A DNA stretch of 64,000 nt from NCBI GenBank assembly GCA_025453605.1, contig JALOPZ010000002.1, positions 388,631-452,630 on the forward strand. Reading direction: 5' to 3'. Both the position numbers and the translations under genes were made by a program. The notes under the pieces are model-generated. The model had not been told where the DNA came from. It did no database searches and saw only the letters and a list, made by a program, of their open reading frames with translations. Positions 8,433-25,685 of the stretch are shown here, in pieces. This DNA is from Candidatus Margulisiibacteriota bacterium (GTDB lineage Bacteria > Margulisbacteria > WOR-1 > O2-12-FULL-45-9 > XYB2-FULL-48-7). The number at the start of each line of letters is the position of its first letter. Positions within the stretch are counted from its first letter, which is position 1.

Positions 8433-8450
8433 TAAAGCACCTCCGTGAGA

Positions 8451-9182: not shown

Positions 9183-9264
9183 TTTATTAGATAATAACGC
9201 AAAATGTTTGACTAAGCAATAACGTTGTGTTAGTTTATCGACCGAAGCCGTTAAGGAGGATATT

Positions 9265-9774
9265 ATGCTGCATTATTTCGGTAAATTCTGGACCAGGGTC
9301 CTGTTATGGTTGACCAGAATAACAGTTAAGATTGAGGGGGAGAAGAATATTCCGGCCGGGCCGGTCATCTACATTCAGGACCCGGCCGAAGCGCGTGACG
9401 GGATGGCAACACTCGCCTATCTCCCCGGTAAAGCGCACTTTATCTTTTCCTGCCGCCGCTTGGTCATCCCGCTCTTTGGTTTTCTGACGCTGGACCCAGC
9501 GAACCTGACCGTAATGCACGACGACGCGCTGGCGATCATCGGTAAACTGGAGAAGAAAGAAAGCGTCATTTTCTTTACTGACAAAGGAGAGATCAAGGGG
9601 GGAGTAACACTGATCGCACTGGAGACCAAACTGCCGGTCGTGCCGGTCAAAGTAAAACGTCAGGGGAAAGTAGTGACGATCAAGATCGGCAAACCGCTCC
9701 GCGCGGGGAACGCCGCCGACGACCACCGGCACCGGCAGGCGCTGAAAGCCGACCTGGAGAAGGCGCTGGCTTAA
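9265..9774 (+). CDS. Degenerate PlsC-like acyltransferase-fold protein
   Basis: VKIEGEKNIPAGPVIYI...GVTLIALETKLPVVPV...IKIGKP follows the PlsC layout, but HX4D reads QDPAEARD; AAGGAGGA RBS. Confidence 0.65.
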   Translation: MLHYFGKFWTRVLLWLTRITVKIEGEKNIPAGPVIYIQDPAEARDGMATLAYLPGKAHFIFSCRRLVIPLFGFLTLDPANLTVMHDDALAIIGKLEKKESVIFFTDKGEIKGGVTLIALETKLPVVPVKVKRQGKVVTIKIGKPLRAGNAADDHRHRQALKADLEKALA

Positions 9775-10085
9775 CTCGCGCCGAGGCCGCCAAGCTGGTC
9801 TTTGGCCTGCTCGATCGCGGCCAGGACCTTGTTCGCTCTGGCCTGTAAGGTGGGCGGGATCTGGCGAAGTTGTTTTTCCAGTTGGCCCAGCCGCTGCATC
9901 GTCTGTTCGCGCAGCTTGGTCTCGGCGATCTTATTCCCCTGCGAGACTTCCTCGTTGGTCTTCTGGTTGTAGTCCCGGATGATCCGCGAAACCTCCGCTC
10001 CCACGTTATCGATCTGCAGCGCCATCGCCTGGGCAGAATTGGCCAGCGAACCGAAACCGTAACTACCGTTTATATTCATGTTCAT
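9771..10085 (-). CDS. Hypothetical helical protein, last gene of the sigma-28-like cluster
   Basis: 104 aa; strong AGGAGGAG RBS; Gln/Ala-rich helical sequence; co-oriented with the cluster. Confidence 0.8.
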   Translation of the reverse strand: MNMNINGSYGFGSLANSAQAMALQIDNVGAEVSRIIRDYNQKTNEEVSQGNKIAETKLREQTMQRLGQLEKQLRQIPPTLQARANKVLAAIEQAKDQLGGLGAS

Positions 10086-10098
10086 CCTTCTCCTCCTT

Positions 10099-11721
10099 TT
10101 AAACCGCTTCGCGGACCAGGCGCAATTCCTGGCCGGGATTACCCAAATTGGACTCGGCGCAGAGCCGGGCGATCACGTCAGTCAGCAGCTTCTGCTTGCC
10201 GGTCAGGAACGCGACCGGCCCCCGGGCCTCGATCGCCGCCTTGACCACGGCCAGCTCTTCCTGGGCTTCCTGCAGCATCTTGGCGTTCGCCTTGTCGCGG
10301 AGCGAATCGAGCTCGGTCTGCGACAGAGCGACGCCGAGCTTTTCCAGATTCCGCAGGACCGTCTTGATCTTCTTTTCCGTGATCGACCAGGCGCTGCCGG
10401 ACAGCTTAGCATAGGTCGCCCGCTCTTCAAAGCCCTCGCGCAGCATTTCCATCAGTCGATAACGGGCCAACCCTTTCCCCTCCGTCTCGATCTGTTCTGT
10501 ATTGCTGACGCCGAGCTTGATCAGCCCGTTCTTGAGCTTGATCATCTTGAACTGGGTTTCCAGGATTGTCCGGGAGTCGCCGTTGACCGCGCGGCGCAGA
10601 TAGAGGGCGCGGAGCTTATCGGTCAGGATATCTTTTTCCTCGTCGGCCGTGTACTGGTACTGCCGCGGCCGTTCGTCGGCACTTCCCCCCTGCCCGCCGG
10701 CCGCCGCCTGGGCCCCCTGGTTATGGGCGATAACCGGCAGCAAGCCCTGGTCGAGACTGATGTCGGGGAGGCGCTGCATAAAGCCCTGGATGTCGAAACC
10801 GATCTTCTCGCCGAGCTTGAGGACCTGGTCGATCTCCTTGACGATCTTGTTTTCCGGCTGTTCGCCGACAGTCTTGCTGGTCAACCCCTCGGTCAGTTTT
10901 TCCGCCACAAAATCCTTGAGCTCCTGGGACTGGTCGCCTGTTTGGCGGTCGACCGCCCCTTTCAGGTCGCCCTCCCGGCCGCCGAAATCGTAACCGCCAA
11001 GCTTGTCGTTAAAGAAAGCAAAATCGATATACCCCTGGACCTCTTTCTTGCTGAGCAGCTCTTCGACCGATTTGCCGGGGGCGCAGAGCTGCTTGATGTA
11101 GCTCTGCTTGACCTGGCGCATGATCTCGGAGCGGACCGAATTGGCGGCGTTGAGCTTGACGCTCTGCAGTTCCTTGGGCGAAAAGCCTTTATCCTTGAGG
11201 AGCGAGGTTTCCAGCTGCTCCAGCTTTTTCTTCGCTTCGCCGCCGCCGGAGACTAAAAATTGCGAATAGGCGCCAAGATATTCCTTGACCGCCGCCCGGC
11301 TCGCCGGCCGCTGGTCAGCCTGCTGGCCGTCGGAACCGCCCTGCTGGCCGGGATCCTGCTTGGCCTTCTGGTTCTTACCGACATAATAGTCGGCCGACTT
11401 GATCTCTACCCGGTCACGGCCGCCCTCTTCCTTGTTCTCCAGGGCAAAGCCGAAATCCTCTTTCAGGCTCTGCATGATCTTGTTCGCCGGCATCTGCTGG
11501 GCCAGGCGGGCGGCGATCTGCGCCAGGATATGTTCCCCGGCTTTGCCTCCCCCTTTCTCCAGCGCTTTTTGCAGAGCGCTTTCGCTCAGAACGTTGCTCT
11601 GTTCCTGGTTCTGATCAACTTTTTTGTCGAGCGTGTTCTGGAGCAGCGTGTCCAGGCTCTGAGCCTGCGCCAGATTGGCGGCGACCGCTAACTGTTGATT
11701 ATTGGCTTGTTCGATCCCCAT
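10099..11721 (-). CDS. Hypothetical all-helical protein with three internal modules
   Basis: 540-aa ORF tightly packed with neighbours; modules end GFSPKEL, GVSNTEQ, GVALSQTEL; Gln-rich N-terminus. Confidence 0.85.
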   Translation of the reverse strand: MGIEQANNQQLAVAANLAQAQSLDTLLQNTLDKKVDQNQEQSNVLSESALQKALEKGGGKAGEHILAQIAARLAQQMPANKIMQSLKEDFGFALENKEEGGRDRVEIKSADYYVGKNQKAKQDPGQQGGSDGQQADQRPASRAAVKEYLGAYSQFLVSGGGEAKKKLEQLETSLLKDKGFSPKELQSVKLNAANSVRSEIMRQVKQSYIKQLCAPGKSVEELLSKKEVQGYIDFAFFNDKLGGYDFGGREGDLKGAVDRQTGDQSQELKDFVAEKLTEGLTSKTVGEQPENKIVKEIDQVLKLGEKIGFDIQGFMQRLPDISLDQGLLPVIAHNQGAQAAAGGQGGSADERPRQYQYTADEEKDILTDKLRALYLRRAVNGDSRTILETQFKMIKLKNGLIKLGVSNTEQIETEGKGLARYRLMEMLREGFEERATYAKLSGSAWSITEKKIKTVLRNLEKLGVALSQTELDSLRDKANAKMLQEAQEELAVVKAAIEARGPVAFLTGKQKLLTDVIARLCAESNLGNPGQELRLVREAV

Positions 11722-11723
11722 GT

Positions 11724-12767
11724 TCAGTTCCCCGCCCCGAACGGATAGATGGCGCGCGCCAGCGCCAGGTTCGCTTCGGCTTTCTCGCGTTCGCCTTTCT
11801 GCTTATAGGCCTGCCCGAGCAGGTAGTGCGGCAGCGCCTGATAGAGATACGGGTTCTCGACCGGGCTGTCCCACTTCTTGCCAGTGACCTCGGTCATGAT
11901 CTCGATCACCTGATCGGCCTTCCCCTGCATCAGGAACATGGTCGCAAAGACATCCTTGGCCGGAATATTTTCTTTATCAGCGGTATAAAGCTCCATTGCC
12001 GCCCGGCCGGCCGCCTGATATTCACCGAGCTGCAACAGATTGATCGCGATCTTCTCCTTAGCTTGCAAGACCAGGTCGGCAGCGGCTCCGAGCGTAACCA
12101 CCTGGCGGTAATGCTCGATCGCCTCCGCCTTGCGGCCGACCTCGGCCAGCGTGTTGGCCAGAAGAAAATGATAATACGGATCGGTCGGATTGGCGGCGCA
12201 GGCGGTGCCGTAGAGCTCCAGATAGCGTTCCCGTTTGGCCGCCATCTGCTCCGCCTCGCGCTGCTTACCCCAGTGATAAAGGGTGATCGGCAGCGCCGGG
12301 CCGCTGACGACCTTACCAGCCGCGTCGACCAGCTGCTCATTGATCGGCCTAACAAAGTGAATACCGAGGCCGTTCCGGAAAGCCTTGACCCGCTGGTAGC
12401 GGAACCCGTTCTGCGTCGTGCCGTAAGGGGCTTCGCACATCGTGATCTCGTAAGCCTCGGCCTTCCCGTTCTCAATGGCCGTACGCAGCTTCTTCAGTTC
12501 TGCGGTCTCCAGATACTCATCGGCGTCGATCCAGATGATCCAGTCGCCGGTCGCGTGCTTGAGCGATTCGTTGCGGGCGGCGGCAAAATCCTTGATCCAG
12601 GGGAAGTGATAGACCCTGGCGCCGTACTTTTCGGCAACCGCCACGGTCTGATCGGTCGAGCCGGTGTCGACCAGGATGAGCTCGTCGACCCCCTGGGCCA
12701 GCGCCGGAAGGACCAGCTGCAGAACAGCCGCTTCGTTCTTGACGATCATGCAGGCGGAGATTTTCAT
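11724..12767 (-). CDS. GT2 glycosyltransferase with C-terminal TPR repeats
   Basis: ISACMIVKNEA, VDTGSTDQT, WIKDFAAARNESL, IDADE, then TPR-like helices (PTDPYYHFLLANTL, HYLLGQAY). Confidence 0.92.
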   Translation of the reverse strand: MKISACMIVKNEAAVLQLVLPALAQGVDELILVDTGSTDQTVAVAEKYGARVYHFPWIKDFAAARNESLKHATGDWIIWIDADEYLETAELKKLRTAIENGKAEAYEITMCEAPYGTTQNGFRYQRVKAFRNGLGIHFVRPINEQLVDAAGKVVSGPALPITLYHWGKQREAEQMAAKRERYLELYGTACAANPTDPYYHFLLANTLAEVGRKAEAIEHYRQVVTLGAAADLVLQAKEKIAINLLQLGEYQAAGRAAMELYTADKENIPAKDVFATMFLMQGKADQVIEIMTEVTGKKWDSPVENPYLYQALPHYLLGQAYKQKGEREKAEANLALARAIYPFGAGN

Positions 12768-13153
12768 CAGACCGCCACCTTGACCCGGGTCGGGTTAAGC
12801 TGTTGAGCGGCACGGCGGACCAATTTGGTATCGCCCTGTTCTTTTTCGAGCGTCTTGGTCAGCTGGGCCGCGTGCTGGGCCCGCAGGGCCTGCGCTTTGC
12901 GGATGTAGGAGTTGAGCCGTTCCAGCTTGATCAGGATCTCTTTTTTGTTGGTGCCGAAGATGCTCATCTCGTATTCAAGGTTCGATTTTTCCATGTAGAA
13001 ATCGCCGGTGATCCGGTCGATCGCTTCCAGCTTCATCTCCGAGAGCACGGCCGGCCGGTAATCGTGGCTGATGCCGAGCCGCTCCGCCTGGACCAGGAGC
13101 TGGTTCTTCAGTTCGGTAATGACTTTTTTCTGCGCTCTTTTTTTCTTGCTCAT
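12767..13153 (-). CDS. Hypothetical basic coiled-coil protein (128 aa)
   Basis: Start reassigned to ATG 13153 (MSKKKRAQKK), which overlaps the upstream stop as ATGA. Confidence 0.8.
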   Translation of the reverse strand: MSKKKRAQKKVITELKNQLLVQAERLGISHDYRPAVLSEMKLEAIDRITGDFYMEKSNLEYEMSIFGTNKKEILIKLERLNSYIRKAQALRAQHAAQLTKTLEKEQGDTKLVRRAAQQLNPTRVKVAV

Positions 13154-13680
13154 GCCAGTATCTCGTGCATCGTTTCGTCGTAAATGGTCTGCCGCATCGC
13201 CGTGTGGTTCTGGTCGATCTGGTCGGCGCGGACCTGGGAGCGGAGGTCGGAGAGCTCTTCGGCGCTGACACCGAAGTGAGCAAGCTGGTCCATGACGTTG
13301 CCGACGAGCCATTCGGAGACGCGGGCCAAAAGCCGGTTGTGCGAAAACATGTTGCCGTAGGCGCCGACGTAGGCTTTCTTGAAGCGGTTGACCAGCTCTT
13401 CGCGCATGGTGGCCGGTTTGGCGCTGTCGAGCTTCCCGCCGACAGTGGTGGTAGCTGACGCGAGCAGTGAGGTAGAATCGTCAAGCCCGGGGACGACCGC
13501 CTTAAAATCGGCGCCGCTATTATCCTCGACCCATTTCAGCTGCGATTCCCTAGTCGCGGCAGCGGATTTGTCGGTCAGCGACTGCTGTTCTTGCGGCTTT
13601 TGCTGGCCAAGCGCCAACTTCGCCTGGAGGGCGTACTCTTTGGCTCCCGAAAATCCGCTGGTAAGTGCTAGTTCGCTCAT
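13150..13680 (-). CDS. Hypothetical protein with one copy of the module found in 10099..11721
   Basis: 176 aa; KAYVGAY...GVSAEELSDLR; directly downstream of a sigma-28-like motif. Confidence 0.85.
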   Translation of the reverse strand: MSELALTSGFSGAKEYALQAKLALGQQKPQEQQSLTDKSAAATRESQLKWVEDNSGADFKAVVPGLDDSTSLLASATTTVGGKLDSAKPATMREELVNRFKKAYVGAYGNMFSHNRLLARVSEWLVGNVMDQLAHFGVSAEELSDLRSQVRADQIDQNHTAMRQTIYDETMHEILA

Positions 13681-13697
13681 AGCTCTGCTCTAATAAT

Positions 13698-13726
13698 ATA
13701 TCGGGCCAAGAGGGGGAAAACTTGCA
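13698..13726 (-). promoter_or_regulatory. Sigma-28-like promoter copy 1
   Basis: TGCAAGTTTT-N11-CCCGATAT, 17 nt before ATG 13680. Confidence 0.8.
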
Positions 13727-13754
13727 TCAAAAGAGCGTTTTTTTGTAGGCTAGA

Positions 13755-16031
13755 TCAGGCTTTTTTCGGCTTCTTTTCGGGAGCTTTCTGCAACTGGCGG
13801 CTCCGTTCGGCCCGTTCCGCGTTGCTCCGTTTATCGGCCGCCTTAGCGGTCGCTTCCCGTTCCTGCTGCCGTTTCTCAGCCGTTTTCTGGTCGGCGCGGC
13901 GGCTGGCCGCCTTTCTGGCTTCGTTGGCCGCCTCCACTTTTTTGTTAGCGGCGATCTCGTTGCCCTTTTCGGTAAAATCTTCCTTATCCTGATTATATTC
14001 GCGCTCGTTAGCTTTGCGCACATGCGCCCGCTCCCCGGCCAGGCGGAGCCCCATCCCGTTGCCGCTCTTGTAGAGCTGGCCGAGCAGGTGGACGACCCAG
14101 TTCTTGGTGTAGGCCGTGCCGGAGGTCGCGGTCGTCGAGTTCAGGCCAACAAACTGCATCCCGGAGTAAGCCGGGTGGTAATAATCCTCGTTCTGCTTGG
14201 TGTTCATCGTCACCCCATAGAGCGAGCTGACGATCGAACGCCAGTAAACCGTTTCGTCATTCGGGGATAACCTGGTCGCGCCTCCACCCGATCCGTTATT
14301 GGCGATCAGGATAACACTATCGGCAAATTTTCGGTCGTAACCGTAAGCGGCTGTCCGCTGCTCCGCGGCATACTTGTGAACGTTATAAACATATGCGCCG
14401 TTCACCGGGGTCCATTTAATATCTTCAGTAAAATCGGCCCCGCCCGGCCCGCCAAATTCGCCATAGCCGATCGCGACCCATTTCCCCTCTTTATCCTGGA
14501 CATAATCGTTGGTCCCGATCGTCACCGGAATCCCGCTGACCGCCAACCCGATCCCGAGGTCGCCGCCATAATTTACCTGGTTCGCCTCGCGAGCATAATA
14601 ATTTCCGAACCAGCTCTTGATAAAGGCATTAGCCTTGTCGTAGAGCTTCTTGCGGTTCAGAAAATCCTGCTTTTCCGCGTCGCTTAGCTCATCGACGTCC
14701 GTGTTGTCATATTGCTCCTGGGTCAGGCCGGAATAAGTGTACCGCCAGGTAAAAAGGTTCTGGCTGGCCAGGTCGGAATCCTGATCGACCGATGGGGTAT
14801 GATCGTTCATCCGATAATTTTCGTAGTCGCCCAGATAGTCGTTGAACTGGCGGGCCCCCATCGCCTGGGAAAAATCCCAGAACCGCATATTATCCAGCTG
14901 GGAGAGACTTAAACCAGCATTTTTGTTCCCTTCCCAGTACGCAGTCATGTGATTGGTGACGGTATGCTGGAGCTGAAAATAATTGGTAAAAAGGGAGATC
15001 TCATGGTAGTTATAATACGGCTTGTGCGCCCGAACAAAGGCATCGATATGCGTCATCATCTGTTTGTCATTACGCGTCTGATCGACCGGGCCAAAGACCT
15101 GTCGCTCCATGAACCAGATCCGGCGTGACGATTCCTTCATTGCCAGGGTGAGCATCATCTTACCGGTGGCGTCGAGGCCATTATAAGCCCCGCTCATGAC
15201 GATGTCGTAAAAGCTTTTGTTGCCAAAAGTGCTGTTCAACCAACTGGTCAACCGGGTAAAGCTCCAGCTCTCACCGGTCCAATCGCTAAGCAGCCCTAAT
15301 CCCTCGTCCCCATTGATAAAGTAGGCCTGATTGGCATCAGCCGCCCCTACCGCGTCCGGTGTCCCCGGCCGTTTGGCCCGGCTTAGGTGGTTCCACTCGC
15401 CGGCAGCGACCCGGAAATCGAGATTTTTGTACGATAACCCCATGTTCTTACCGGCCGAGACATTGGCCTGCTCATTGCTGCCGGGGCCGAACGAACCGGA
15501 TTTGTGCCGCTGGCCGGAGACCCAGTTATTGCGCCAATCGTTCAGGCCGCTACTGCCGGGATGCGACGCCTCCCAGGCTTTGAGTGAGACTTCGTTATCG
15601 ACCACGCCATTTTTGGCTAATCGTTTCATTTCTTCGTAATACCGGTACATCTTTTGGTCGTCCGCGTTGCTGCTCCCGGCCTTGCTCTTCCAATCGTCGG
15701 TGAACTGGCGCCATTCACTACCGTCGTTTTCATCGATCGTAAAGCCCCATTCGTTGAACTCTTTCAGCCAGTCATCCGTGACTCTGGTCGTTTCTTTGCC
15801 GTTCTGCAGCGCGACTCCCTCGCCTTCGTCGGCAAACGCGGTCCCTTCACAGTACATCTGCTCAAAGCCGGGGAGCCACTTCATCATCTCCTGGCCAAAA
15901 TTGGCCAGCCGGGCTAAGCCGGCATCTTTGGTGAGAAAGTTCTGCAGGTCGCGGGTCCGGGGCATAAGCTTGCGGCGCGGCGGCCGCAGCTGATATTCGT
16001 CCGTAGCGAGGAGGTTATTCCACGACGTCAT
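13755..16031 (-). CDS. Hypothetical Trp/Tyr/Asn/Asp-rich protein with a charged C-terminal coiled-coil tail
   Basis: 758-aa ORF; AGGGAG RBS; no signal peptide; no family recognised. Confidence 0.85.
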   Translation of the reverse strand: MTSWNNLLATDEYQLRPPRRKLMPRTRDLQNFLTKDAGLARLANFGQEMMKWLPGFEQMYCEGTAFADEGEGVALQNGKETTRVTDDWLKEFNEWGFTIDENDGSEWRQFTDDWKSKAGSSNADDQKMYRYYEEMKRLAKNGVVDNEVSLKAWEASHPGSSGLNDWRNNWVSGQRHKSGSFGPGSNEQANVSAGKNMGLSYKNLDFRVAAGEWNHLSRAKRPGTPDAVGAADANQAYFINGDEGLGLLSDWTGESWSFTRLTSWLNSTFGNKSFYDIVMSGAYNGLDATGKMMLTLAMKESSRRIWFMERQVFGPVDQTRNDKQMMTHIDAFVRAHKPYYNYHEISLFTNYFQLQHTVTNHMTAYWEGNKNAGLSLSQLDNMRFWDFSQAMGARQFNDYLGDYENYRMNDHTPSVDQDSDLASQNLFTWRYTYSGLTQEQYDNTDVDELSDAEKQDFLNRKKLYDKANAFIKSWFGNYYAREANQVNYGGDLGIGLAVSGIPVTIGTNDYVQDKEGKWVAIGYGEFGGPGGADFTEDIKWTPVNGAYVYNVHKYAAEQRTAAYGYDRKFADSVILIANNGSGGGATRLSPNDETVYWRSIVSSLYGVTMNTKQNEDYYHPAYSGMQFVGLNSTTATSGTAYTKNWVVHLLGQLYKSGNGMGLRLAGERAHVRKANEREYNQDKEDFTEKGNEIAANKKVEAANEARKAASRRADQKTAEKRQQEREATAKAADKRSNAERAERSRQLQKAPEKKPKKA

Positions 16032-16049
16032 GCCTGCTCCCTAGCGGGG

Positions 16050-16376
16050 TTACCCGCCAAACAGGGAGAAGAGCTTATTGGAGAGATCGAGATCGTTCTT
16101 CTTGATAGCGAGGAGGCGATCGATCACGGAGAGCGTATCGGAGTTCCACTTGTCGGCCAGATAGGTGGCGGCCGCCGAGTCTTTTCTCACGATGTGGCCC
16201 TGGATCTCGACCGTTTCGGTCGTGTCGTCCGACATCGCTTCAACATAGGTCTTCATGTCCTGGTTGAACTTCTGCCAGAAATCGACGATCTTATCGGTAA
16301 CGCTGCTGGCGTCCTTTTCGTAGGAAGCCCCCTGTAGCTGGGATAATATTGCGTAACCGCTCTGAATTTCACTCAT
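16050..16376 (-). CDS. Small helical-hairpin protein, paralog of 16464..16799
   Basis: 108 aa; AAGGAG RBS; aligns without gaps at both ends with the upstream 111-aa protein. Confidence 0.85.
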   Translation of the reverse strand: MSEIQSGYAILSQLQGASYEKDASSVTDKIVDFWQKFNQDMKTYVEAMSDDTTETVEIQGHIVRKDSAAATYLADKWNSDTLSVIDRLLAIKKNDLDLSNKLFSLFGG

Positions 16377-16429
16377 CTTTTTCCATCTCCTTTTCCGTCC
16401 GCTTCAACCAGGGTTGCCTGATTTAAGAG

Positions 16430-16456
16430 GACGGGGCCCCCGGAGGGGCCACCGTC
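16430..16456 (-). terminator. GC-rich stem-loop (partial terminator or mRNA stabiliser)
   Basis: GACGG-T-GGCCCC-TCCG-GGGGCC-CCGTC just after the stop of 16464..16799; weak U-tract (CTCTT). Confidence 0.65.
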
Positions 16457-16463
16457 AACATTC

Positions 16464-16799
16464 TTACAGCTTCTGGGACAGCTTCGCATTGATCTGCTTG
16501 TCGAGGTTCGAGGCAGAGGCCAAGCCGCTCGCCTGGTTCTGCTGCCGCATGCTAAATTGTTCATTGACGTACAGGAAAGCCGAACCGTCAACCTTGACCG
16601 CTTTCCCGGCGCTGGTGACCACGCAACCGGCCGCATTCGCTTCGGCAGTCGTGTGACCTTTTCCCGCGTTGTAATCCGAAGCCTGGATGTCAGCACCAGA
16701 GTTCGCGTCAACGCCTTCGAAAGCATTGATGACCTGGTTTTGCCACGCATCGGTCTTTTGGTCCATCTTTATAAAAGAATCTGTCATATCTACGCTCAT
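16464..16799 (-). CDS. Small helical-hairpin protein, candidate major polymer subunit
   Basis: 111 aa with its own promoter, structured 5' UTR, AAGGGGGTGA RBS and 3' hairpin. Confidence 0.85.
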   Translation of the reverse strand: MSVDMTDSFIKMDQKTDAWQNQVINAFEGVDANSGADIQASDYNAGKGHTTAEANAAGCVVTSAGKAVKVDGSAFLYVNEQFSMRQQNQASGLASASNLDKQINAKLSQKL

Positions 16800-16870
16800 G
16801 TTCTTTCACCCCCTTTTAGTTTGGCCCGCCTGTCGAGAGCGAGCCTGATCTCCGATCCCCTTCCAATTGC

Positions 16871-16899
16871 TTATCGGGTCGAGCCCCGCAAAACTTGCA
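16871..16899 (-). promoter_or_regulatory. Sigma-28-like promoter copy 2
   Basis: TGCAAGTTTT-N11-CCCGATAA. Confidence 0.8.
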
Positions 16900-16901
16900 T
16901 C

Positions 16902-17156
16902 CTAGACAACGGTATTTTGGACCAGCATCCCGGGGAGCGGCAGCCCGCCGAGCCCGGCCATGTAGCTTTTCACTTCGTGGGCCGCCGGCATAATAGCGTC
17001 GAGCTTGGCGCCGGCGCCGGCCGTCCCCGACCCGTCATTCCCCAAACCGAGCGCCTGGGAGACGTTATCACCGAGGGAATTAAGCGAGAGACCGCCTCCG
17101 CTCAGGTCGATCCCGTATTTGCTCTTGAGAGACTCTTCGGCGCGCAGCATGCTCAT
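16902..17156 (-). CDS. Hypothetical Gly-rich small protein (84 aa)
   Basis: Start reassigned to ATG 17156 (MSMLRAEE), 10 nt after the -10 box of promoter copy 3. Confidence 0.7.
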   Translation of the reverse strand: MSMLRAEESLKSKYGIDLSGGGLSLNSLGDNVSQALGLGNDGSGTAGAGAKLDAIMPAAHEVKSYMAGLGGLPLPGMLVQNTVV

Positions 17157-17166
17157 GGCACTGTTA

Positions 17167-17195
17167 TTATCGGGGGGAGAGGCGGAAAACTTGCA
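17167..17195 (-). promoter_or_regulatory. Sigma-28-like promoter copy 3
   Basis: TGCAAGTTTT-N11-CCCGATAA. Confidence 0.8.
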
Positions 17196-17216
17196 TTGCG
17201 GAGGTGACAGGGAAAA

Positions 17217-17415
17217 CACTAATTCTCACTAATTTGTCCGCTCGCGAATAACGCTAATGGGATTTTCACTAATTAGGCGAAGCACTCTAATTGACGCTTA
17301 TATCGCGAATATTGAGTAACATTAAATAATTAGCGTAGATTAGTGATGATTAGCGTCTTTAGCAAAATCCCATTAGCGATATTAGAGATCCTGGGTAATT
17401 AGTGATAATTAGCGT
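17217..17415. repeat. AT-rich palindromic element made of short repeated units
   Basis: Left half repeats C[A/G/T]CTAAT(T); right half repeats (A)ATTAG[T/C/A]G; perfect 15-bp inverted repeat CGCTAATGGGATTTT (17252-17266) / AAAATCCCATTAGCG (17364-17378). Confidence 0.85.
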
Positions 17416-17720
17416 TTTGAGGGGTGGCCCAGGTCATTTAGGAGCTGGCGGATCCGGTCTATCGACGATTCCAGGGCTTTTTCTTCTTCTTCGCTGAAGC
17501 TGAAAAGCTTTTCCAGCTTCTCTTCTTTCTGCTTGTTGAGGTTCAGCAGAGCGGCCGAATTACCGTCGGCAATTTGCAGGTTGGCCGACTTGGCCAGCTG
17601 GCTCAGGTTCGCCGCAAAGCTCGGGCCGTTCTGGGCCTGGCTCGACGAACTCTGCTTATTGGCCGGCTTGATCGCCGCCGCGTCGTTGATAATATTCGGA
17701 TTCACGTTCCCGATGTTCAT
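17409..17720 (-). CDS. Hypothetical small protein
   Basis: 103 aa; ATGA overlap with the giant ORF; Asn/Ser-rich disordered N-terminus then PSFAANL and a helical C-terminus. Confidence 0.82.
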   Translation of the reverse strand: MNIGNVNPNIINDAAAIKPANKQSSSSQAQNGPSFAANLSQLAKSANLQIADGNSAALLNLNKQKEEKLEKLFSFSEEEEKALESSIDRIRQLLNDLGHPSKR

Positions 17721-20700
17721 GCTGAATAGTTCCTTCCGACCCCGGCCAGAACAGCTTCTTCCTGCTGGGCCGCCAGATACCGGTCGTAGGCCGACGCCGG
17801 CTTGGCGAACCGGGGCTGCTTGGTTTCTTTCTTGACGCTGGCCTCGGTCCGGGCCGCGGCAACCTCGATCTTCTTCGCCGGCTTCTCTTCCTTGACCGGG
17901 AGCTCGCCGACACTTGCCAGGATCATCCCGGCCCGCTCAACCTCAAGATTATACAACCGCGGCGGCTGAGGCGCCAGCGGGACAACCGGGACCGGCTGCG
18001 GTTGGACCGCTGCCGTTTTGACCGGCCGGGCCGCCGCCAGCTTCTTCAAGATCTCTTCGACCGTCGCCTTATCAACCCCCTTGAGCAGAGCGAGACAGGT
18101 ATTCTCGTCCTTATTTCTCAGGTTGAGATCGGCGATCAGCTGATCGGCTTTGGAGACATAGATATCCTGCTCTTCTTCGACCCGGTGGGCATTGGCTGCC
18201 TTGGCGTCGGCCGCCTTTTGCGCGGTTGCTTCGTCGATCTTCCGGCCGGCATCCAGAGCCGCCTGTCCGGCCGCCACGATCTGCTCCCCTGCCTGCTGCG
18301 CGGCCGGTGTCGCAACGCTGGCCAGAGTCGTTGTCTGGGTCGTCGATCCGCTGCCGCTTTCGACCGCTTCACCCAGGTTCTTGAGCATGGTCTGCAGGGC
18401 GGCGATCTCTCTGTTCAGCTCCTTGATCTCGCCGCGGTTCCCTTTGATCTCCCCCATCAGTTCGTCGATCTTCCCTTTGGCCGCCTCGGTCCCGGCCAGG
18501 GCCGCTTTATGAGCTAGCTTGGCGTTCCGATATGAATCATTAATAGCTATTTTGATATTCTCTTTCTTCGTCAGGTCTGCCTGCTTAGTTTTCCGCTCTG
18601 CCGCTGTCAGCTTACCGCTCTCCAACTCCTGCCGGAGCGCGGCGATCTCCTTCTTATTCTGAACATACTGTTGCTCCAGGCTGGTCAGGTTATTGGCTGT
18701 TTTGACGACCGTCAGCGCGGCTGTCCCCTTGGCTGTCGCCAGCTCGTTGCGCTGGGCGACCAGAGCGGTGATCTCCGCCTGTTTCTGGGCGATCTCCGCC
18801 TGTTTCTGGGCGATCAGCGTCTTGATCTCCGTTTTGGTCAGCTGCTCGGGGTTACCGGCTGCCGCCTGGTTCGGAGCGGTTTTGAACTGGCCTTTGAGGC
18901 CGGATACTTCCTGTTCCAGCTTGACCTGAGCCGCTTTCCCCGATTCGATCTTGGCGTCAAAAGATTTGGTCAGGGCGTCAAGCGAATCGGCCAGGACTTT
19001 CTGGGAGCGGGCCGCCTGTTCCTGCCGCTGGAACTGGTGGGTCACGACCTGCTGGGCCGCCGCCGGATTGCCGGCCGCCGCCGCACCCGCTTCACCGGCC
19101 CGGGTCTGATCGGACGCAGTTGCCTTCTCCAGTTCGTTAACGGTCGCGATATCCGGGTTAAGGAAACTCTGGATAGTATAAACGGAGCTCTCCGGCATCA
19201 TCTTAAAGAACGAAAGGGCGGCATCGGCCTGCATTGATTTAAAACCGAGAACGTCCATCCCCTCTTCGCTCTGCGCCATCATATACTGGTGGGTCTCGAT
19301 GTCAGACTCCATACTATCGAGCGCGCCGGCAAAACCGGCCCCCTCTTCTTCACGCTCTTCAGTCGCGCAGGCGTTATTCTCTTCCTTCTTCTCTTTCCCG
19401 TCCGTTTTCTTCCCGCTCAGATCATTATGGACCGTATTCGATTTTTCATCATCGCCGGTGAAGCAGAGCGGGATCAGAGCGTTCAAGGAGCGGCCGACCA
19501 GATTGATGGTTGAGGAGAGTTTACCAACATTGCGCATGCTCCGGATCAGTTCACCCTTCTGGGAATTCAGCTTTTCTTTATCGACGTTCGATTGCGCCGG
19601 ATAGCTCTCCGCGATCTGCTTATCGATCTGCGCGATCTCTTTCTTCGTCCCGGCCCTGGCGATCGAGCACGAGAGCGAGATGGTCGAGACCGCGGCGCCA
19701 ACGAACGCCTGGGTCATCTGAACATATGCTTCGCGCTTCTGGTTCTCGCGCTGAACGATCGACTCCAGCGTCCCCTTGAGCGCCTCCAGGATCGAGAGGG
19801 CCGCCGAGCGGTTCGCTTCGACGATATCGGTCAGACTGGTGGAGGCCTGGAACTTGCCCATCGCCGCCTTGATCTCGCGCATGATCTGCATCGCCATGGC
19901 GATCGCCAGCTTGGCGTTGTATAAGCGCTCCATCCGGGTGTTGACCAACGCGGTATCGCCGCTGACGGACGAAAGACCGTAGTCGAGCGAGTTGATCAGA
20001 TCGGTCGACATCTGGCGCATGATCTCGTCTTCGCGCGCGTCCAGCTCGTCGGTCCAGTCGCCGGTTTTTTCGCTCTTCTTTTTGCCGTTCATTTCGTCGA
20101 CCGTGTCGTTGACATTGTAGTTCTTGAGCGCGCCGATATCGGCATTGGTCGTGTTGTTCGCTTCGATCACGCTGTACATGTTGGCGGCCAGGTTGCCGAG
20201 GGCCGGCAGGACCTCAGCCAACGCCATCCCGAACGAGCCGGCGGAGGTGGTCGCCATCAGGGACATGCTGGCGGCCGAGCAGGCGATATTGATCCCGCCG
20301 GTAATGCCGGCGTTGATCAGCTGTTTCTCGGCGTCACGCCCCTGGTTCATTACCGCCGCGGTCGTCCGCAGGTCGGCCGCCAGGTTGCTGACGATCCGGA
20401 GAGCGGCCGAGAAGCTGGCCTGATTGACCGATTTGGTCAGCTCCTCGGCGGCGGTCCCCGGCGCGACGCCGGTCAGCTCGCGCTGGACCGCGGCCCGGAC
20501 CTTGGCGCCGAGCGTCAAGGCATCGGAGAGGACCTGCTTCAGGGTGAAGATCCGCTGGATCTGCTTGATCGTTTTGGCGAGCTGGCTGTTGTTAAGCCCG
20601 TGGTAGCCGTCGCCGGTCCCGATCAGACCATTGGCCAGGAAGTCGAGCATCGCCTGCGCTTCCATCCGATCCAGTTTCCCCTCGATCGAATCGTCGTTGG

Positions 20701-23677
20701 CCGCCCGATTCGCCAGAAAAGCGTCCATCTCTTTGTCATTGGACCGATAGCTGATATTGCGCGATTCGTTGCTGGCGGCCAGACCGATCGAAACAGCCGA
20801 GCCGGCGATCGCCGCGCCGAGGTTAATGAACGCCCCGGCGACCGAACCGGCCGGTAAGAGCGAGACGATAAAACCGGCGATCGCGCCGACGCTCTGCCCC
20901 GCCGCGCCAGCGTTCATTTTGCCAAGGGCGATCTGCTTCTGGGTCTCCATGTTCCGGGCGGTGATGTACTGCGACAGCTGGAAGGTGATCGCCGAGGCGA
21001 CCGCCTGCCGCTGAGCAAGGAGCGCTTCGACGCTCTTCATCGTCAACCCTTCGATCGTCGATTCGCCCAGGCTCCCGCCGAAGGTCGCCTTGACCAGCCG
21101 GTTAATATCCTGCTTCTGTTTGGCGAGATAAAAAAGGACGCGGATCGCGTTGTTAAGGGCGTTCAGCTTCCGCTCGAAATTGGCGATCGCCTTGGAATCG
21201 AGGTGGTACATCCCGTCCTTGGTTTTGACCAGAAAAGCGTCGCCTTTGGCGAGGGCGCTCTCCATCTGGGCGATCTCGGCGTCAATGCTGTTAAAGACGT
21301 CGACGACCGTCTCGCCGGTGGAAGCGGTATCCGCTACCACATCAGAAGGAGTCGGCGCGCTGACATTGGGGGTGTCGATATCGCTCAAGATCTGGGAAGC
21401 GGCCAAAGCGGCGGTAGCGCCGAGCGCCGCACAAGCCGCGCCGACCGCGGTCAGCGCCGGCACCCAGGCTGGTGTCGAGGAACCGAGAGAGGCGACCGTG
21501 CAGATCGCGGCGATCACGACCGACGCGATCATCAGAACAATAGCGGCCGCCTGCATCGCCTTGGCCTGCTCCAGCCGGTCAAAGGTGTCGATGTTGAGGA
21601 GGAGCTGGTTGAAAACCGCCGCCCGCATCATCAGCTGCGAGAGGGCGGCGTCGACGATCTGGGTGGTCGGGCCGGTCATCAAGTCGGCCCCGGCGGCGAC
21701 CAGTTCGGCGTTGGTGGCAAAACCGCTCAGGCCGGTCAGCTCGCGGTAAACAGTGTTGCGGATCTCGCTCTTGAGCACGGCCAGGGCGGCGGCCATCCGG
21801 TAAGCGTTCTGTGCTTTGACGACGTTCCCCCGAACGACCTTAACCAGCTGGTCGATGTGCAGGTCCTGGATCGCGTCGCTGTTGTAGAAACCCGGTTCCG
21901 CCCATTTCACCGCTTTACCGTTGCTGCTGTAGTAGATCCCGTCGGACGAATCGCCGTCGGGATCGAAATCTTCGATCCCGAAATAATCGCGCTGGCCCGG
22001 ATCTTCTAAACTATCGAGGACCATGCCTCCAGGCACCAAAAGAATGCCGTAACCGCCCAGCTTGTCGTTGACATAATTCCAGGCCCGGGAGATCCCCTCG
22101 TACAGGACAAAGCGGATCCCGTCGACGAGATTATCGAGCACGATGTTGTCGAGGATATCGTCAACGACGACCCGGCCGATCCACTGGATAGCGTCGCCAA
22201 CACCGCCGTGAGTGCCGTAACCGCCATCCGCCCCCCACCCCTCTTTGGACGCCCAGGCCTTCTCCCACCCTTCGCCGCTAGTCCAGTTCTCGTTATCGTA
22301 GGCCCAGCCGAAAAGGGTCCAAATGATGTGGTCGACGAACTCGCCGATATAATTGAGCGCCGTGGCGATCACGTCAAGGATATTGGCTACCAGGGTCAGA
22401 CAAAACTCGACCGGGTTACGGGTCATATTGATCCCCATCTGACCCAGGTTAAGGACCTGGCCGATGATCGCACCACCGACCCCCAGTTCTTCTCCCAGCC
22501 AGTTCTGGCCGGCGCGCAGACACCCCCCCATACCGGACCAGAATTCATCCCAGCCGCCCGACCACATCTTGTCCCAGGCGGCGTCGCAGTCGTCGATCGC
22601 CTCCATCTCCTCGAGCTTCTTGTTGACTTCCTCCATCTTATCGTCGATCTGCTTGCCGAATTCATCCAGCTTGACCGTCAGCGCGCCCAGCCCGGAGGCG
22701 ACCGAAAGGGCCAGCATCCCCATCGCGCTGTTCTCCGGCATCTGCGCCAGCCCGTCGGTCATCTCTTTGATCATCGTCTGGATCAGCTGCTTGAACACTT
22801 CCAGGTTCCGCTTCATCGCTTCCAGGTACTGTTTCTGGTCCTGGCAGATCTTCCGGTTCAGCTTCTGGGCCTCATAACCTTGCGACCACCAGTTCGACCA
22901 CTTAAAGCCGCTGCTGTTCGACTCGTTCTGAGCGTCGGCCAGCTTTTTGTTGTAAACCGCGGTGTTATGGGTGTTGACCTCTTCCAGCATCTTGGCAAAA
23001 CCTTGCTGAGAAGCTTTCAGGATACCGGAGAAAAGCTTGAGGACGCCGGCGCGCATACTGGCCGATTTACCGCCGTTATCCATCTGCTGGCCGGTATAGA
23101 TCTCGTCGATCAGGTTGTTGATATCCCCCTTGAGCGACATGGCGATCGCCAGGCCGAGGAGCATGTTGAGGTAATGCATCATCTTGCGGGTGAACTCTTT
23201 AAGCGCCTCGTCCTTGAGGTAATAATAACCGTCGGCGCCGGCGCTGGTGTCGATCATTTTATCGGGATCAAAACCGCTGAAGAGGCCGTCCAGCCCTGCG
23301 TCAACAGTGCCGAAAGCTTCTTCCGCGCCGTAGTCGCCGGTCTCGGTCGGGGCGCCGGTCTGGCCAGCGCCAGTAGTCGGGCAAGCATCGCCAGGCTGAC
23401 CGACGCCAGGGTTAACCGGCATGGTCGCCAGGCCGTAAGCGGCAGAGTTGACAACGTAGTTGTCGCCTTCCCGCCCGGCGGCGCGAATATGGGGAGCGGG
23501 GGGATTGGTCCCGGCGGTGACGGTTGCCGCGTCGGGGCCGTTCAACTCCGCCCCGGCCGCCAGGATCGGATCGGCGGTCACAAACTGCGGTTGAGCGGCA
23601 GCGGCGGATGAGCCAAGGAGCTCACCATCGCGGGTGATGTTCTTAATATCAGGGGCTTGAATGGTCGGTGCTGTCAT
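17717..23677 (-). CDS. Giant protein with ~5 degenerate coiled-coil+hydrophobic-hairpin repeats and a long C-terminal coiled coil
   Basis: 1986-aa ORF; recurring DG[YM][YH] and RELTG motifs at about 205-aa spacing; no signal peptide. Confidence 0.9.
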   Translation of the reverse strand: MTAPTIQAPDIKNITRDGELLGSSAAAAQPQFVTADPILAAGAELNGPDAATVTAGTNPPAPHIRAAGREGDNYVVNSAAYGLATMPVNPGVGQPGDACPTTGAGQTGAPTETGDYGAEEAFGTVDAGLDGLFSGFDPDKMIDTSAGADGYYYLKDEALKEFTRKMMHYLNMLLGLAIAMSLKGDINNLIDEIYTGQQMDNGGKSASMRAGVLKLFSGILKASQQGFAKMLEEVNTHNTAVYNKKLADAQNESNSSGFKWSNWWSQGYEAQKLNRKICQDQKQYLEAMKRNLEVFKQLIQTMIKEMTDGLAQMPENSAMGMLALSVASGLGALTVKLDEFGKQIDDKMEEVNKKLEEMEAIDDCDAAWDKMWSGGWDEFWSGMGGCLRAGQNWLGEELGVGGAIIGQVLNLGQMGINMTRNPVEFCLTLVANILDVIATALNYIGEFVDHIIWTLFGWAYDNENWTSGEGWEKAWASKEGWGADGGYGTHGGVGDAIQWIGRVVVDDILDNIVLDNLVDGIRFVLYEGISRAWNYVNDKLGGYGILLVPGGMVLDSLEDPGQRDYFGIEDFDPDGDSSDGIYYSSNGKAVKWAEPGFYNSDAIQDLHIDQLVKVVRGNVVKAQNAYRMAAALAVLKSEIRNTVYRELTGLSGFATNAELVAAGADLMTGPTTQIVDAALSQLMMRAAVFNQLLLNIDTFDRLEQAKAMQAAAIVLMIASVVIAAICTVASLGSSTPAWVPALTAVGAACAALGATAALAASQILSDIDTPNVSAPTPSDVVADTASTGETVVDVFNSIDAEIAQMESALAKGDAFLVKTKDGMYHLDSKAIANFERKLNALNNAIRVLFYLAKQKQDINRLVKATFGGSLGESTIEGLTMKSVEALLAQRQAVASAITFQLSQYITARNMETQKQIALGKMNAGAAGQSVGAIAGFIVSLLPAGSVAGAFINLGAAIAGSAVSIGLAASNESRNISYRSNDKEMDAFLANRAANDDSIEGKLDRMEAQAMLDFLANGLIGTGDGYHGLNNSQLAKTIKQIQRIFTLKQVLSDALTLGAKVRAAVQRELTGVAPGTAAEELTKSVNQASFSAALRIVSNLAADLRTTAAVMNQGRDAEKQLINAGITGGINIACSAASMSLMATTSAGSFGMALAEVLPALGNLAANMYSVIEANNTTNADIGALKNYNVNDTVDEMNGKKKSEKTGDWTDELDAREDEIMRQMSTDLINSLDYGLSSVSGDTALVNTRMERLYNAKLAIAMAMQIMREIKAAMGKFQASTSLTDIVEANRSAALSILEALKGTLESIVQRENQKREAYVQMTQAFVGAAVSTISLSCSIARAGTKKEIAQIDKQIAESYPAQSNVDKEKLNSQKGELIRSMRNVGKLSSTINLVGRSLNALIPLCFTGDDEKSNTVHNDLSGKKTDGKEKKEENNACATEEREEEGAGFAGALDSMESDIETHQYMMAQSEEGMDVLGFKSMQADAALSFFKMMPESSVYTIQSFLNPDIATVNELEKATASDQTRAGEAGAAAAGNPAAAQQVVTHQFQRQEQAARSQKVLADSLDALTKSFDAKIESGKAAQVKLEQEVSGLKGQFKTAPNQAAAGNPEQLTKTEIKTLIAQKQAEIAQKQAEITALVAQRNELATAKGTAALTVVKTANNLTSLEQQYVQNKKEIAALRQELESGKLTAAERKTKQADLTKKENIKIAINDSYRNAKLAHKAALAGTEAAKGKIDELMGEIKGNRGEIKELNREIAALQTMLKNLGEAVESGSGSTTQTTTLASVATPAAQQAGEQIVAAGQAALDAGRKIDEATAQKAADAKAANAHRVEEEQDIYVSKADQLIADLNLRNKDENTCLALLKGVDKATVEEILKKLAAARPVKTAAVQPQPVPVVPLAPQPPRLYNLEVERAGMILASVGELPVKEEKPAKKIEVAAARTEASVKKETKQPRFAKPASAYDRYLAAQQEEAVLAGVGRNYSA

Positions 23678-23686
23678 TACAAATAT

Positions 23687-23715
23687 ATATCGGTCCGAAG
23701 GGGGAAAAACTTGCG
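23687..23715 (-). promoter_or_regulatory. Sigma-28-like promoter copy 4
   Basis: CGCAAGTTTT-N11-ACCGATAT, 9 nt before ATG 23677. Confidence 0.8.
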
Positions 23716-23731
23716 TAATTTGGGGACTTTT

Positions 23732-24964
23732 TTAGCTGGCGGATGGGACAGCAACCTGCCCCTTATTTTGCCTAATACCGTCTAAAATCTGACCGATCCG
23801 GCCGACATCCGTTTGACCTAATTGTTTAAGTGTTACCCTGATCTGCCAAAAAGCCTTGCTGTAGCCTGGCTCTTTGACATCGACCCGGGCGAGTTTCGCC
23901 TCAATTTCCGGGTTTTTAAGCTCCCGAAGCTTGCCGAGCGCCTTATCGTTCCACTCTGATTCTTCGATCGCCTTGCGCTCCGGCAGCTTACCCTCGATCA
24001 TGTACTGCCTGAGAATGGTCGCCGCGAACCGGTCGCGGGAGAGAGCGTCTGTCAACTCCATATCCAGCCCGTCGCGGGACATTTCGCCCTGAAGCTGCAA
24101 AGCCAGTTTGTAAAAGACCATCAGCGCCTGCTGTTGTTCGTGCTTTGAACCGTTGAGCAGCTCAGCCAGTTGGCTGGCCACGTCGTCGGCCCGGTATTCG
24201 CCGTCCTGAGGCGGGAAGTAAGCCTCCATCAGCGCCCGATGCCGCGAGGTCATCAGCTTGAGTTCTTCATGATTGTTTTCCGTCAATCCTCTGGCCACCG
24301 CCAGCAGGTTTTTGGCGCCGATCAATGTCCGGATCCGGGAGGCGGACAAAAAAGTCCGCGCGTCCTGACCGGTCCCACGCAAATAGGTTTTCCCCTGGCG
24401 CAAATTCTCGACCAGTTCACCGGTTGAGACTTTGTCCTTATCACCCATCAGACTGTGCCACTGCTGTTCGCCCACTTTCTGGCCGATCATCTCGGCAAAA
24501 TCCTCTCTGGTGATCCCCCCGCGCAGCTCCGCGGCGGTAAGGACCCTCATAAATTTATCCCGCGGCAGGCTGGCGACGTCGCCGCTCAGAAAATAGACAG
24601 TTTCAAAATAAGCATCCACCCCATCGTTAGCCGGCCGTCCGTTGGGTACAGCGGTCTGGCGCCCCCCCGCGACAGCCACCTTCCCACCCCCGGCCGCTGG
24701 GGCATCCCCTTTGATCTCCGTATCGGCCAGCAACCCGTCATCCCCGGCCACCGCTTTCCACTCCTTTTCGGAGAGAGAGATCTTGACCGTGTCGGAGCAA
24801 TAATCCTGCAGCTCCTTCAGGCTGATCTGTTTATCGCCATCCTGATCGAGCAGCTTGATCTCCCCATCGGCCCCCTGTTTGCTCGAGGAGGCGCTAAGCT
24901 TATTCTTACCGACATATGACGCCACCTGCCGGGCGCTCAATAAGACTTTACCGGTTTCGTTCAT
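23732..24964 (-). CDS. EF-hand-containing hypothetical protein
   Basis: 410 aa; canonical loop DQDGDKQISLKE (24812-24847) plus degenerate loops (AGDDGLLADTE, MGDKDKVSTGE). Confidence 0.8.
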   Translation of the reverse strand: MNETGKVLLSARQVASYVGKNKLSASSSKQGADGEIKLLDQDGDKQISLKELQDYCSDTVKISLSEKEWKAVAGDDGLLADTEIKGDAPAAGGGKVAVAGGRQTAVPNGRPANDGVDAYFETVYFLSGDVASLPRDKFMRVLTAAELRGGITREDFAEMIGQKVGEQQWHSLMGDKDKVSTGELVENLRQGKTYLRGTGQDARTFLSASRIRTLIGAKNLLAVARGLTENNHEELKLMTSRHRALMEAYFPPQDGEYRADDVASQLAELLNGSKHEQQQALMVFYKLALQLQGEMSRDGLDMELTDALSRDRFAATILRQYMIEGKLPERKAIEESEWNDKALGKLRELKNPEIEAKLARVDVKEPGYSKAFWQIRVTLKQLGQTDVGRIGQILDGIRQNKGQVAVPSAS

Positions 24965-25191
24965 TTTTTATCCCTCTGCTCGCGCAGCGCCGTCTTCAGG
25001 TCGGTCAGCTGGGAGCGCATCTTCTGCTGGACCTGCTCCAGATGCGCCTGGGCCGCTTTGGTCCGCCGCCGGGCAGCCGCCAGGGCGACATAGCCGGTCA
25101 GCACCCGCCCGATCGCCGAAACGATCAGCAAGAACGAGAGCGCCAGCGAAAAGCTGACCAGATTAAAGTTTTGCGCCAAATAATCGAACAT
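24961..25191 (-). CDS. Small membrane protein (TM helix + coiled coil)
   Basis: 76 aa; AAGGGGAG RBS; LVSFSLALSFLLIVSAIG hydrophobic stretch; ATGA overlap with the next gene. Confidence 0.8.
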   Translation of the reverse strand: MFDYLAQNFNLVSFSLALSFLLIVSAIGRVLTGYVALAAARRRTKAAQAHLEQVQQKMRSQLTDLKTALREQRDKK

Positions 25192-25201
25192 TATTCTCCC
25201 C

Positions 25202-25489
25202 TTATTTCAAAAGCGAGATCGTCGCCGTATTGAACCACTGACGGACTTTCCCCTGAATAAGATCCGGCATAGTCGAACCTTGGGCGGCCGCGCCCACCTT
25301 GGGCTGGCCGTTCCGGTCAGTCCGCTGGACCGCGTTCTGCGCCGCTTTGGTATCGCCCTGGACCGGCGAATGAAGCATATCCAAACACCGTTCGGCCGCC
25401 TCATCGGTCGCCCGCCGGCGCTCGCCGAGATTTTGCCGGCCCGGGCACTTGTTCGAGTCGGCGAGCTGATTGGTCATTTGGACGCCCAT
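25202..25489 (-). CDS. Hypothetical protein (95 aa)
   Basis: AAGGAG RBS; TAATG coupling with the upstream gene. Confidence 0.65.
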   Translation of the reverse strand: MGVQMTNQLADSNKCPGRQNLGERRRATDEAAERCLDMLHSPVQGDTKAAQNAVQRTDRNGQPKVGAAAQGSTMPDLIQGKVRQWFNTATISLLK

Positions 25490-25662
25490 TACAGCAACTC
25501 CTTACGGGCGGCGGCGTAGTCGCCCTTGTTGCCCGACGGTATTTCCTCGGGCGTGATGCCGGACCGGTTCTCCAGAGCGAGCAGATCGGTAACCTCTTTA
25601 CAGAGGGTATCGATCTCCGCTCCGAGCTTATTCAAATTGATGTTTTCGACCGTCGATTCCAT
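25489..25662 (-). CDS. Hypothetical small protein (57 aa)
   Basis: ATG 25662 (MESTVENINL) after a GGAGGGA RBS; first gene behind promoter copy 5. Confidence 0.65.
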   Translation of the reverse strand: MESTVENINLNKLGAEIDTLCKEVTDLLALENRSGITPEEIPSGNKGDYAAARKELL

Positions 25663-25685
25663 ATCTGATAGTCCCTCCACTGGTT

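Follow-up and report, generated by a model that had tools for sequence, protein, structure and literature searches.

The phylum Margulisbacteria has, distinct from the flagellum, a second type III system of flagellar descent, and an operon of orphan genes that is syntenic across the phylum encodes two small proteins, A and B, which on the evidence of their profiles are distant paralogues. We regard it as slightly favoured that A is the major and B the minor subunit of an extracellular tube exported by this motorless machine. This reading draws on the paralogy of the two proteins, the phylum-wide synteny of their operon, an export apparatus for which flagellin and motor genes were not detected, the separate clade formed by its FlhA and the pattern of promoter and hairpins around gene A.

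The window, that is the whole stretch of 64,000 nucleotides analysed here, comes from a genome (G000) of 1.53 Mb that is 91% complete, and all features of the operon given below lie on its minus strand. Gene A (16464..16799, 111 aa, P0002) is predicted to encode a helical hairpin, the candidate major tube subunit, and gene B (16050..16376, 108 aa, P0001) its paralogue with a similarly predicted hairpin, the candidate minor subunit. Both open reading frames were confirmed together with the stretches of residues quoted from them in an earlier note on this DNA, and a gap of 87 nt separates them. About 70 nt ahead of A lies a sigma-28-like promoter motif, GCAAG-N17-CGATAA (16871..16898), of putative function, and the A-B gap holds tandem stem-loops (16395..16450) which likely form the 3' end or a stabiliser of a short A transcript. 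Upstream of A are a small orphan ORF (16902..17219), 105 aa as called, which probably starts later because a promoter motif at 17167-17194 falls inside its called 5' end, a 103-aa orphan (17409..17720) whose position is kept in relatives, and a helical giant of 1986 aa (17717..23677) with hydrophobic segments at about 710-760 and 930-965 and a coiled-coil tail, which is a candidate pore or translocon. Further upstream lie ORFs of 95, 76 and 410 aa (23732..25489), the 76-aa one having a TM-like segment and being syntenic in relatives. Directly after B comes a 758-aa orphan (13755..16031) with a charged helical C-tail, a candidate tip or cap judged only by its position, followed by a 176-aa orphan (13150..13680), a conserved helical orphan of 128 aa (12767..13153), a GT2 glycosyltransferase with TPR repeats (11724..12767) that is missing in some loci, a 540-aa orphan (10099..11721) and a helical orphan of 104 aa (9771..10085), which is the last operon gene in close relatives.

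On both sides of the orphan operon (window positions 4209-9774 and 25721-27323) we observed a fatty-acid-synthesis-like cluster, in which a reductase, an acyl carrier and a ketoacyl synthase were recognised by inspection and YcaO, a glycosyltransferase and acyltransferases by Pfam. This flank is retained in G122 and L007 and missing from distant loci; its products might modify secreted proteins.

Single A and B sequences gave no match in Pfam, and word-based searches returned just seven (A) and three (B) near proteins, the query itself counted. Single-sequence and shallow-profile searches of 146 genomes of the phylum reached the genus only (3/146 and 2/146), one of the three matches being weak and lying inside a 6917-aa frame, and a contig scan with A1 recovered none of 68 candidates. 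As searches of this kind stop at the genus, homologues were gathered by means of synteny. The 540-aa orphan occurs in 128 of the 146 genomes and in all 72 of high quality, and 40 loci carrying it were fetched, picked for long contigs and spread. In the recurrent gene order the giant is followed by two small genes (about 100 and about 85 aa), A, B, the gene for the large protein, the 176-aa and 128-aa genes, the glycosyltransferase where present and the 540-aa gene; of these, the core from A through the 540-aa gene extends to distant classes. A and B were found together in 34 of the 40 loci; B stood without an adjacent A match in three, and neither was seen beside the 540-aa gene in the other three, one of which is a contig of 3.9 kb.

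The position-defined alignments of 42 A rows (A8) and 40 B rows (A9) are real families, with P<1e-3 for 38/42 A rows and 40/40 B rows in a leave-one-out analysis from which rows of >35% identity were removed. Their mean column identity of 17% (A) and 21% (B) indicates fast divergence. At E<=0.001 the B profile picked out 211 of 1.84 billion cluster representatives, and among the 150 matches listed 148 were 71-145 aa long and two were repeat artefacts. P0016 and P0056, large top matches of the representative search with the B profile, proved to be summed weak repeats and were dropped. With a deeper B profile the family was placed in 119/146 genomes and 65/72 of high quality, mostly as a single copy. 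A neighbouring gene of the operon is present in 31 public loci; the titles of 24 name Margulisiibacteriota, Saganbacteria or WOR-1, and those of seven say just 'bacterium'.

Some loci deserve separate mention. Two kinds of lineage-specific duplication were seen: an additional A-like gene of 194 aa with a larger insert is present in G127 (L078:7145-7729), and two B genes stand in tandem in G040 (L089:7476-8159), as they do in G032 and G041-G044 by the deeper B profile. An unrelated 119-aa ORF lies between A and B in G086 (L083:11512-11871), with a similar ORF at G000:C1:29588-29950. The operon of G096 (L081:10812-14123) is rearranged, the large gene being upstream of A and B, and the gene after B in G118 (L070:14287-15186) is just 299 aa, with A not detected.

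The earlier note had described A and B as a tandem paralogous pair with ungapped alignments at both ends. The relationship is invisible pairwise, as BLASTP of A against B gave no alignment at E<=100, and the comparison of shallow profiles reached a Prob of 2.8% with E 0.016. Both proteins have homologues in other genomes, where the order of the pair is kept. The deep profiles, however, bear the relationship out: hhalign of A8 against A9 gave Prob 79.9%, E 1.4e-5 and a score of 32.9 over 49 C-terminal columns, against 8.8 for the reversed control, <=9.7 in 60 column shuffles and <=14.2 in 60 seven-column block shuffles. Besides, among the 7882 ORFs of the genome the B profile matches A best after B itself (E 0.046), and 33 of the 42 A rows match the B profile too at P<1e-3. 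A quick tree of both families showed two label changes, a count that none of 500 shuffles equalled, and a single ancient duplication was not supported as a clean split. As to the proposed alignments, the G..V..D..A..Y register at the C-end was recovered, but after the Y the deep profiles align with an offset of four residues, leaving the L, D and KL matches unsecured, and the alignment at the N-end was recovered by none of the profile comparisons.

Both proteins are predicted to fold as helix/beta-hairpin/helix hairpins. The AlphaFold2 model of A places a helix at residues 5-32, a variable insert, a beta-hairpin at 59-69 and a helix at 73-110 (pLDDT 78.1, pTM 0.59), and that of B a low-confidence N-terminus, a helix at 26-49, a beta-hairpin at 55-64 and a helix at 68-106 (pLDDT 64.0, pTM 0.38). 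The variable middle formerly ascribed to both holds for A, whose insert ranges from 0 to 44 residues over the 42 rows, but not for B, in which it is the N-terminus that varies (13-41 residues). The helices of B are almost constant in length (24-25 and 37-40 residues), and the shortest A rows have 89-99 aa. Both families are acidic, with a median pI of 4.5-4.7, and a Sec signal or hydrophobic leader was seen in none of the 42 A and 40 B rows, in agreement with the earlier statement that a prepilin site is lacking. The ESM Atlas gave no usable feature match, every TM being <0.5, and Foldseek against the PDB returned nothing at E<=0.001 for A and B. The best matches in a wide structural alignment (Z 6.7 and 6.9) were generic hairpins; EsxA/B chains were among the fold matches at Z 5.7-6.1, and SctF was not among the best 50.

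Flagellin genes are transcribed from sigma-28-type promoters. The motif GCAAG-N17-CGATAA, the -35 part of which deviates from the sigma-28 consensus, was scanned for with <=1 mismatch. Its pattern had been modelled on the site in the window, and the relatives are not independent. It was found upstream of A in 17/36 loci, of the 176-aa gene in 19/24 and of the giant in 12/14, and upstream of B in 0/38, the large gene in 0/29, the 128-aa gene in 0/26 and the 540-aa gene in 2/35; the antisense controls gave 0. The genome has 16 exact sites against 1.85 expected, and unrelated genes are preceded by them too. The A-B gap often folds into two tandem hairpins, with a z of -4.0 in the window and z <-2 in 34/35 loci (mononucleotide shuffles). 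Contigs from RNA libraries of two studies, which cannot rank expression and are no proof of A as the most expressed gene, span A with its flanks (16423-16804 and 16477-16835) with zero differences, and full-length cover of this kind was found neither for B nor for the 758-aa gene nor for the rest of 9500-26000, where only short, partial, loose-ended pieces occurred. The sigma-28-like promoter and the 3' hairpin of A fit a major subunit A and a minor subunit B.

Six further motif sites, with TTTT after CAAG, lie at G000:C1:217579, 324309, 354885, 473214 and 510280 and at C5:58588; at least three of them precede orphan-looking ORFs (99, 912 and 204 aa), one with an S/T/P/N-rich N-terminus, and the six form a candidate regulon of more substrates. 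The leader of A contains ACAGGC on the sense strand at about 16825-16835.

The machine itself is encoded in two parts. The export-gate cluster comprises FliK, a 271-aa FlgE/F/G-type gene, FliM/N/O/P/Q/R (the FliM and FliO matches lying below the cut-off), FlhB, FlhA and a sigma factor, and the basal-body set comprises FlgF/G/A/H/I, a sigma factor, FlgB/C, FliE/F, a FliG of 153 aa and FliH/I/J. Flagellin_N, FliG_C, FlgD and MotA_N were not found in this 91% complete genome. Across the phylum FlhA is present in 135/146 genomes and flagellin in 15/146, flagellin being thus missing from 131/146 genomes and from 61/72 of the high-quality ones. Thirteen of the 15 flagellin genomes (G058-G070) have >=2 FlhA matches, and family B was found in 12 of these 13. 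In a midpoint-rooted FlhA tree of 28 rows, in which four of G058-G070 were sampled with one cellular FlhA outgroup only, one copy groups with the FlhA of the window genome and of flagellin-less genomes (100/99) and the other with the FlhA of Thermomicrobium. Five injectisome SctV rows stand apart (100/100, with thin outgroup sampling), and the FlhA of the window genome is not a member of their clade. The Thermomicrobium-grouping copy of G070 lies amid genes for FlgD, a 656-aa FlgE, FliL, FlhF and MotA, and the other copy does not. It is from the scarcity of flagellin together with the two FlhA clades that the second flagellum-derived type III system of the phylum follows.

Lone flagellin-domain matches in two single-FlhA genomes (G126:C4:62270-62632 and G007:C64:1277-1687) may be contamination or remnants. 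In distant classes (L094:16323-17588, L104:10257-11261 and L088:939-1925) either FliP is 328-421 aa long with an apparent N-terminal extension or an extra exported-looking gene precedes it. Just upstream of the export-gate cluster (G000:C1:1-12540) lies a surface-protein-like ORF of at least 3137 aa with TPR and barrel-like neighbours.

Operon and machine are both present in the window genome, where about 210 kb separate the operon from the nearest basal-body cluster. As both are near-universal in the phylum, their co-occurrence by itself says little. Physical linkage of the operon to type III export apparatus genes was detected in 5/40 loci. In four of these (G040, G006, G012 and G039), belonging to four families, a FlgE/F/G-type gene of 283-288 aa stands right after the 540-aa gene on the same strand and matches the short FlgE-like protein of the window genome with P 1.9e-33 to 3.5e-25, FlgG itself giving 7e-26. 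In the fifth (G029), the start of A lies about 4.5 kb past a fliQ-fliR-flhB-flhA-sigma cluster, and the genes in between are unrelated. The association with type III export that had been proposed for the pair gains from the flagellin-less export system, the linkage in distant relatives, the promoter and hairpin pattern and the predicted hairpin folds, but similarity in sequence to axial proteins is not clearly above background.

By sequence, A and B lie outside the SctF, SctI, flagellin, WXG100 and pilin families, and the likeness proposed here, to needle and rod or to flagellin with a minor paralogue, is one of function. The cut-off of PF09392 (SctF) was passed in 0/146 genomes, none of its 36 weak matches in the phylum coincides with the B genes placed by the deeper B profile, and the family was not among the Pfam families shown for the profiles A8, A9 and A15; profile searches of PDB and Pfam for A and B returned only repeat, coiled-coil and designed-protein noise. 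When 30 injectisome proteins were ranked, needles took the first three places with the A profile and the first four with the deep B profile. Compared with a needle profile of 8 rows, A8 gave E 0.082 and a score of 13.0, with shuffles reaching 12.7, and deep B gave E 0.017 and a score of 17.0, with shuffles reaching 13.7, whereas the SctI-SctF control reached E 2.8e-4; on the needle HMM the reversed sequences of A and B do as well as the real ones. Needle homology on the strength of the panel ranking was rejected, the reversed and shuffled controls having taken away most of the signal, and it is not counted as homology. For the SctI inner rod, hhalign yielded E 0.48-0.71 against a 4-row SctI profile, which is no profile match, and the best HMM scores of flagellar rod, hook and FliE proteins against A and B were <=7 bits. 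Flagellin_C appeared in 1/42 rows of A8 (E 0.045), and A and B belong neither to flagellin nor to Flg_bb_rod. WxG, which is absent from both window proteins as had been stated before, occurs anywhere in the sequence in 6/42 A rows, 3/40 B rows and 4/146 further B proteins and is not conserved. As for a type VII ATPase, the one PF01580 match in the 91% complete genome, in a 747-aa frame, is taken as an ordinary FtsK. The comparison of profiles with SctF, SctI and flagellar axial proteins, a check suggested in the earlier note, thus gave similarity not clearly above the background of helical hairpins.

The likeness to SctF (PrgI/MxiH/YscF) and SctI consists of small helical hairpins (about 70-90 aa in SctF, predicted in A and B), the lack of a Sec signal and a tandem paralogous pair (mxiH-mxiI), and in weak profile alignments the C-terminal helices of A and B fall on that of the needle. 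A and B differ from SctF in their predicted beta-hairpin and, in A, in an insert of <=44 residues, and the window proteins are without the PxxP turn. The machine differs from an injectisome in that rod and L/P rings are kept and FlhA falls outside the five SctV sequences compared. With flagellin FliC, A shares conserved terminal helices around a variable middle, a putative sigma-28-type promoter of its own and a glycosyltransferase in the cluster, but A and B are three to five times shorter than the phylum's flagellins. WXG100/ESAT-6 proteins resemble the pair as tandem helical hairpins of about 100 aa with generic fold matches, but A and B have no conserved central WxG and carry a predicted beta-hairpin at the turn, and a search of the 91% complete genome with PF01580 found no multi-domain EssC/EccC.

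Among the partner proteins, the giant has 3-5 TM-like segments in 14/14 homologues. It matches a 4-row SctE profile at E 0.002 with a score of 38.8 (27.3 reversed, <=25.1 in six shuffles), a weak match that may reflect composition. The 540-aa protein was tried as the gatekeeper SctW and left unsupported at E 0.21. Profile searches of PDB and Pfam for the 540-aa protein and the giant, and of PDB for the 758, 176 and 128-aa proteins, gave repeat, coiled-coil and designed-protein noise only.

The variable domains of flagellin face outward on the filament. In the proposed tube, A and B, because they lack a Sec signal, would travel unfolded through the FliPQR/FlhAB gate and on through the rod, which the L and P rings hold, and would polymerise distally. 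The lumen would be lined by the two terminal helices of each subunit, with the beta-hairpin and variable insert pointing outward in the manner of flagellin variable domains. The promoter and 3' stem-loops of A would yield a short abundant mRNA, and B, read through from the A transcript, would serve in low copy as an adaptor or as the subunit next to the tip. The tip itself may be the 758-aa protein and the pore the hydrophobic giant, for contact with another cell.

The evidence from linkage, promoter and missing signal applies equally if A and B are substrates of the machine that form no tube, being soluble secreted factors or translocon-associated proteins, with the short FlgE-like protein as the whole conduit. 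The 271-aa FlgE/F/G-type gene adjoining FliK, the fast divergence expressed in the column identities of 17% and 21% and the absence of SctF similarity would all accord with such substrates. However, a mostly single-copy and syntenic B (119/146) and fixed helix lengths suit a structural part over an effector, and we consider this alternative unlikely, though deserving of some weight.

A and B could also act in the cytoplasm as helical chaperones of the machine or as its regulators, or form a heterodimer like ESAT-6/CFP-10, which would be in keeping with tandem hairpins of about 100 aa, fold matches to EsxA/B at Z 5.7-6.1 and an acidic pI of 4.5-4.7. This appears quite improbable to us, as WxG is rare (6/42 A, 3/40 B and 4/146 further B), the single FtsK_SpoIIIE match is taken as an ordinary FtsK, the promoter and hairpin that set A apart speak against a 1:1 stoichiometry, and a hypervariable insert is unlikely for a chaperone. 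An envelope or cytoskeletal module unrelated to the type III machine, adjacent to it through chance or shared regulation, would explain why linkage is lacking in the window genome and in 35/40 fetched loci, and the sigma-28-like motif occurs beyond the locus and the orphan genes tested are without family match. Against such a module stand the same-strand rod/hook-type neighbour in four loci of four families and flhA nearby in a fifth; moreover, the machine needs some distal substrate and the known ones were not found. This reading we judge improbable.

Abby and Rocha 2012 (PMC3459982) describe, for one lineage of systems, an exaptation by which the flagellum gave rise to the injectisome. The non-flagellar type III systems of Myxococcales resemble the present one in flagellum-derived export without motility parts, and protein translocation is argued for them in that paper, which lists them as lacking FlgBCDEK, FliEG, FlgH and SctF. 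The Margulisbacteria system, in contrast, keeps FlgB/C/F/G/H/I, FliE and a short FliG, has a true flagellum alongside in one lineage and is tied to an orphan operon. The hook-basal-body remnant of Buchnera retains the basal body with filament and motor gone, as a lineage-restricted reduction of a sole flagellar system, and is not known to have new filament genes. The machine of Margulisbacteria differs from it in being phylum-wide, paralogous to the flagellum and accompanied by novel partner genes. In the literature on Margulisbacteria, Saganbacteria and Termititenax we found no description of the system; a termite-gut genome paper of 2019 in ISME J may discuss both flagellar sets. The words 'flagell', 'type III' and 'secretion' are absent from the main text of PMC6349859, the supplements of which may list these genes.

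Taken more broadly, and with a probability that we put somewhat short of even, the flagellar system was duplicated before the phylum radiated and one copy became an injection device independent of the injectisome, with rod and L/P rings and not a secretin, a new needle of A and B with a variable outer loop, a tip of 450-1100 aa, a giant multi-hairpin translocon and a sigma-28-type regulon. A second system across the phylum, with an FlhA clade of its own and retained in one branch together with a true flagellum, would independently replicate the textbook transition from flagellum to injectisome and would allow a test of which parts have to be invented anew. As A and B are small and soluble, the claim of a self-assembling tube can be tested without culturing the organism. 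If true, this sister lineage of Cyanobacteria, with its small genomes, would have contact-dependent secretion into other cells as an ancestral trait, which would suggest that these uncultured bacteria of 1-3 Mb live by contact with other cells.
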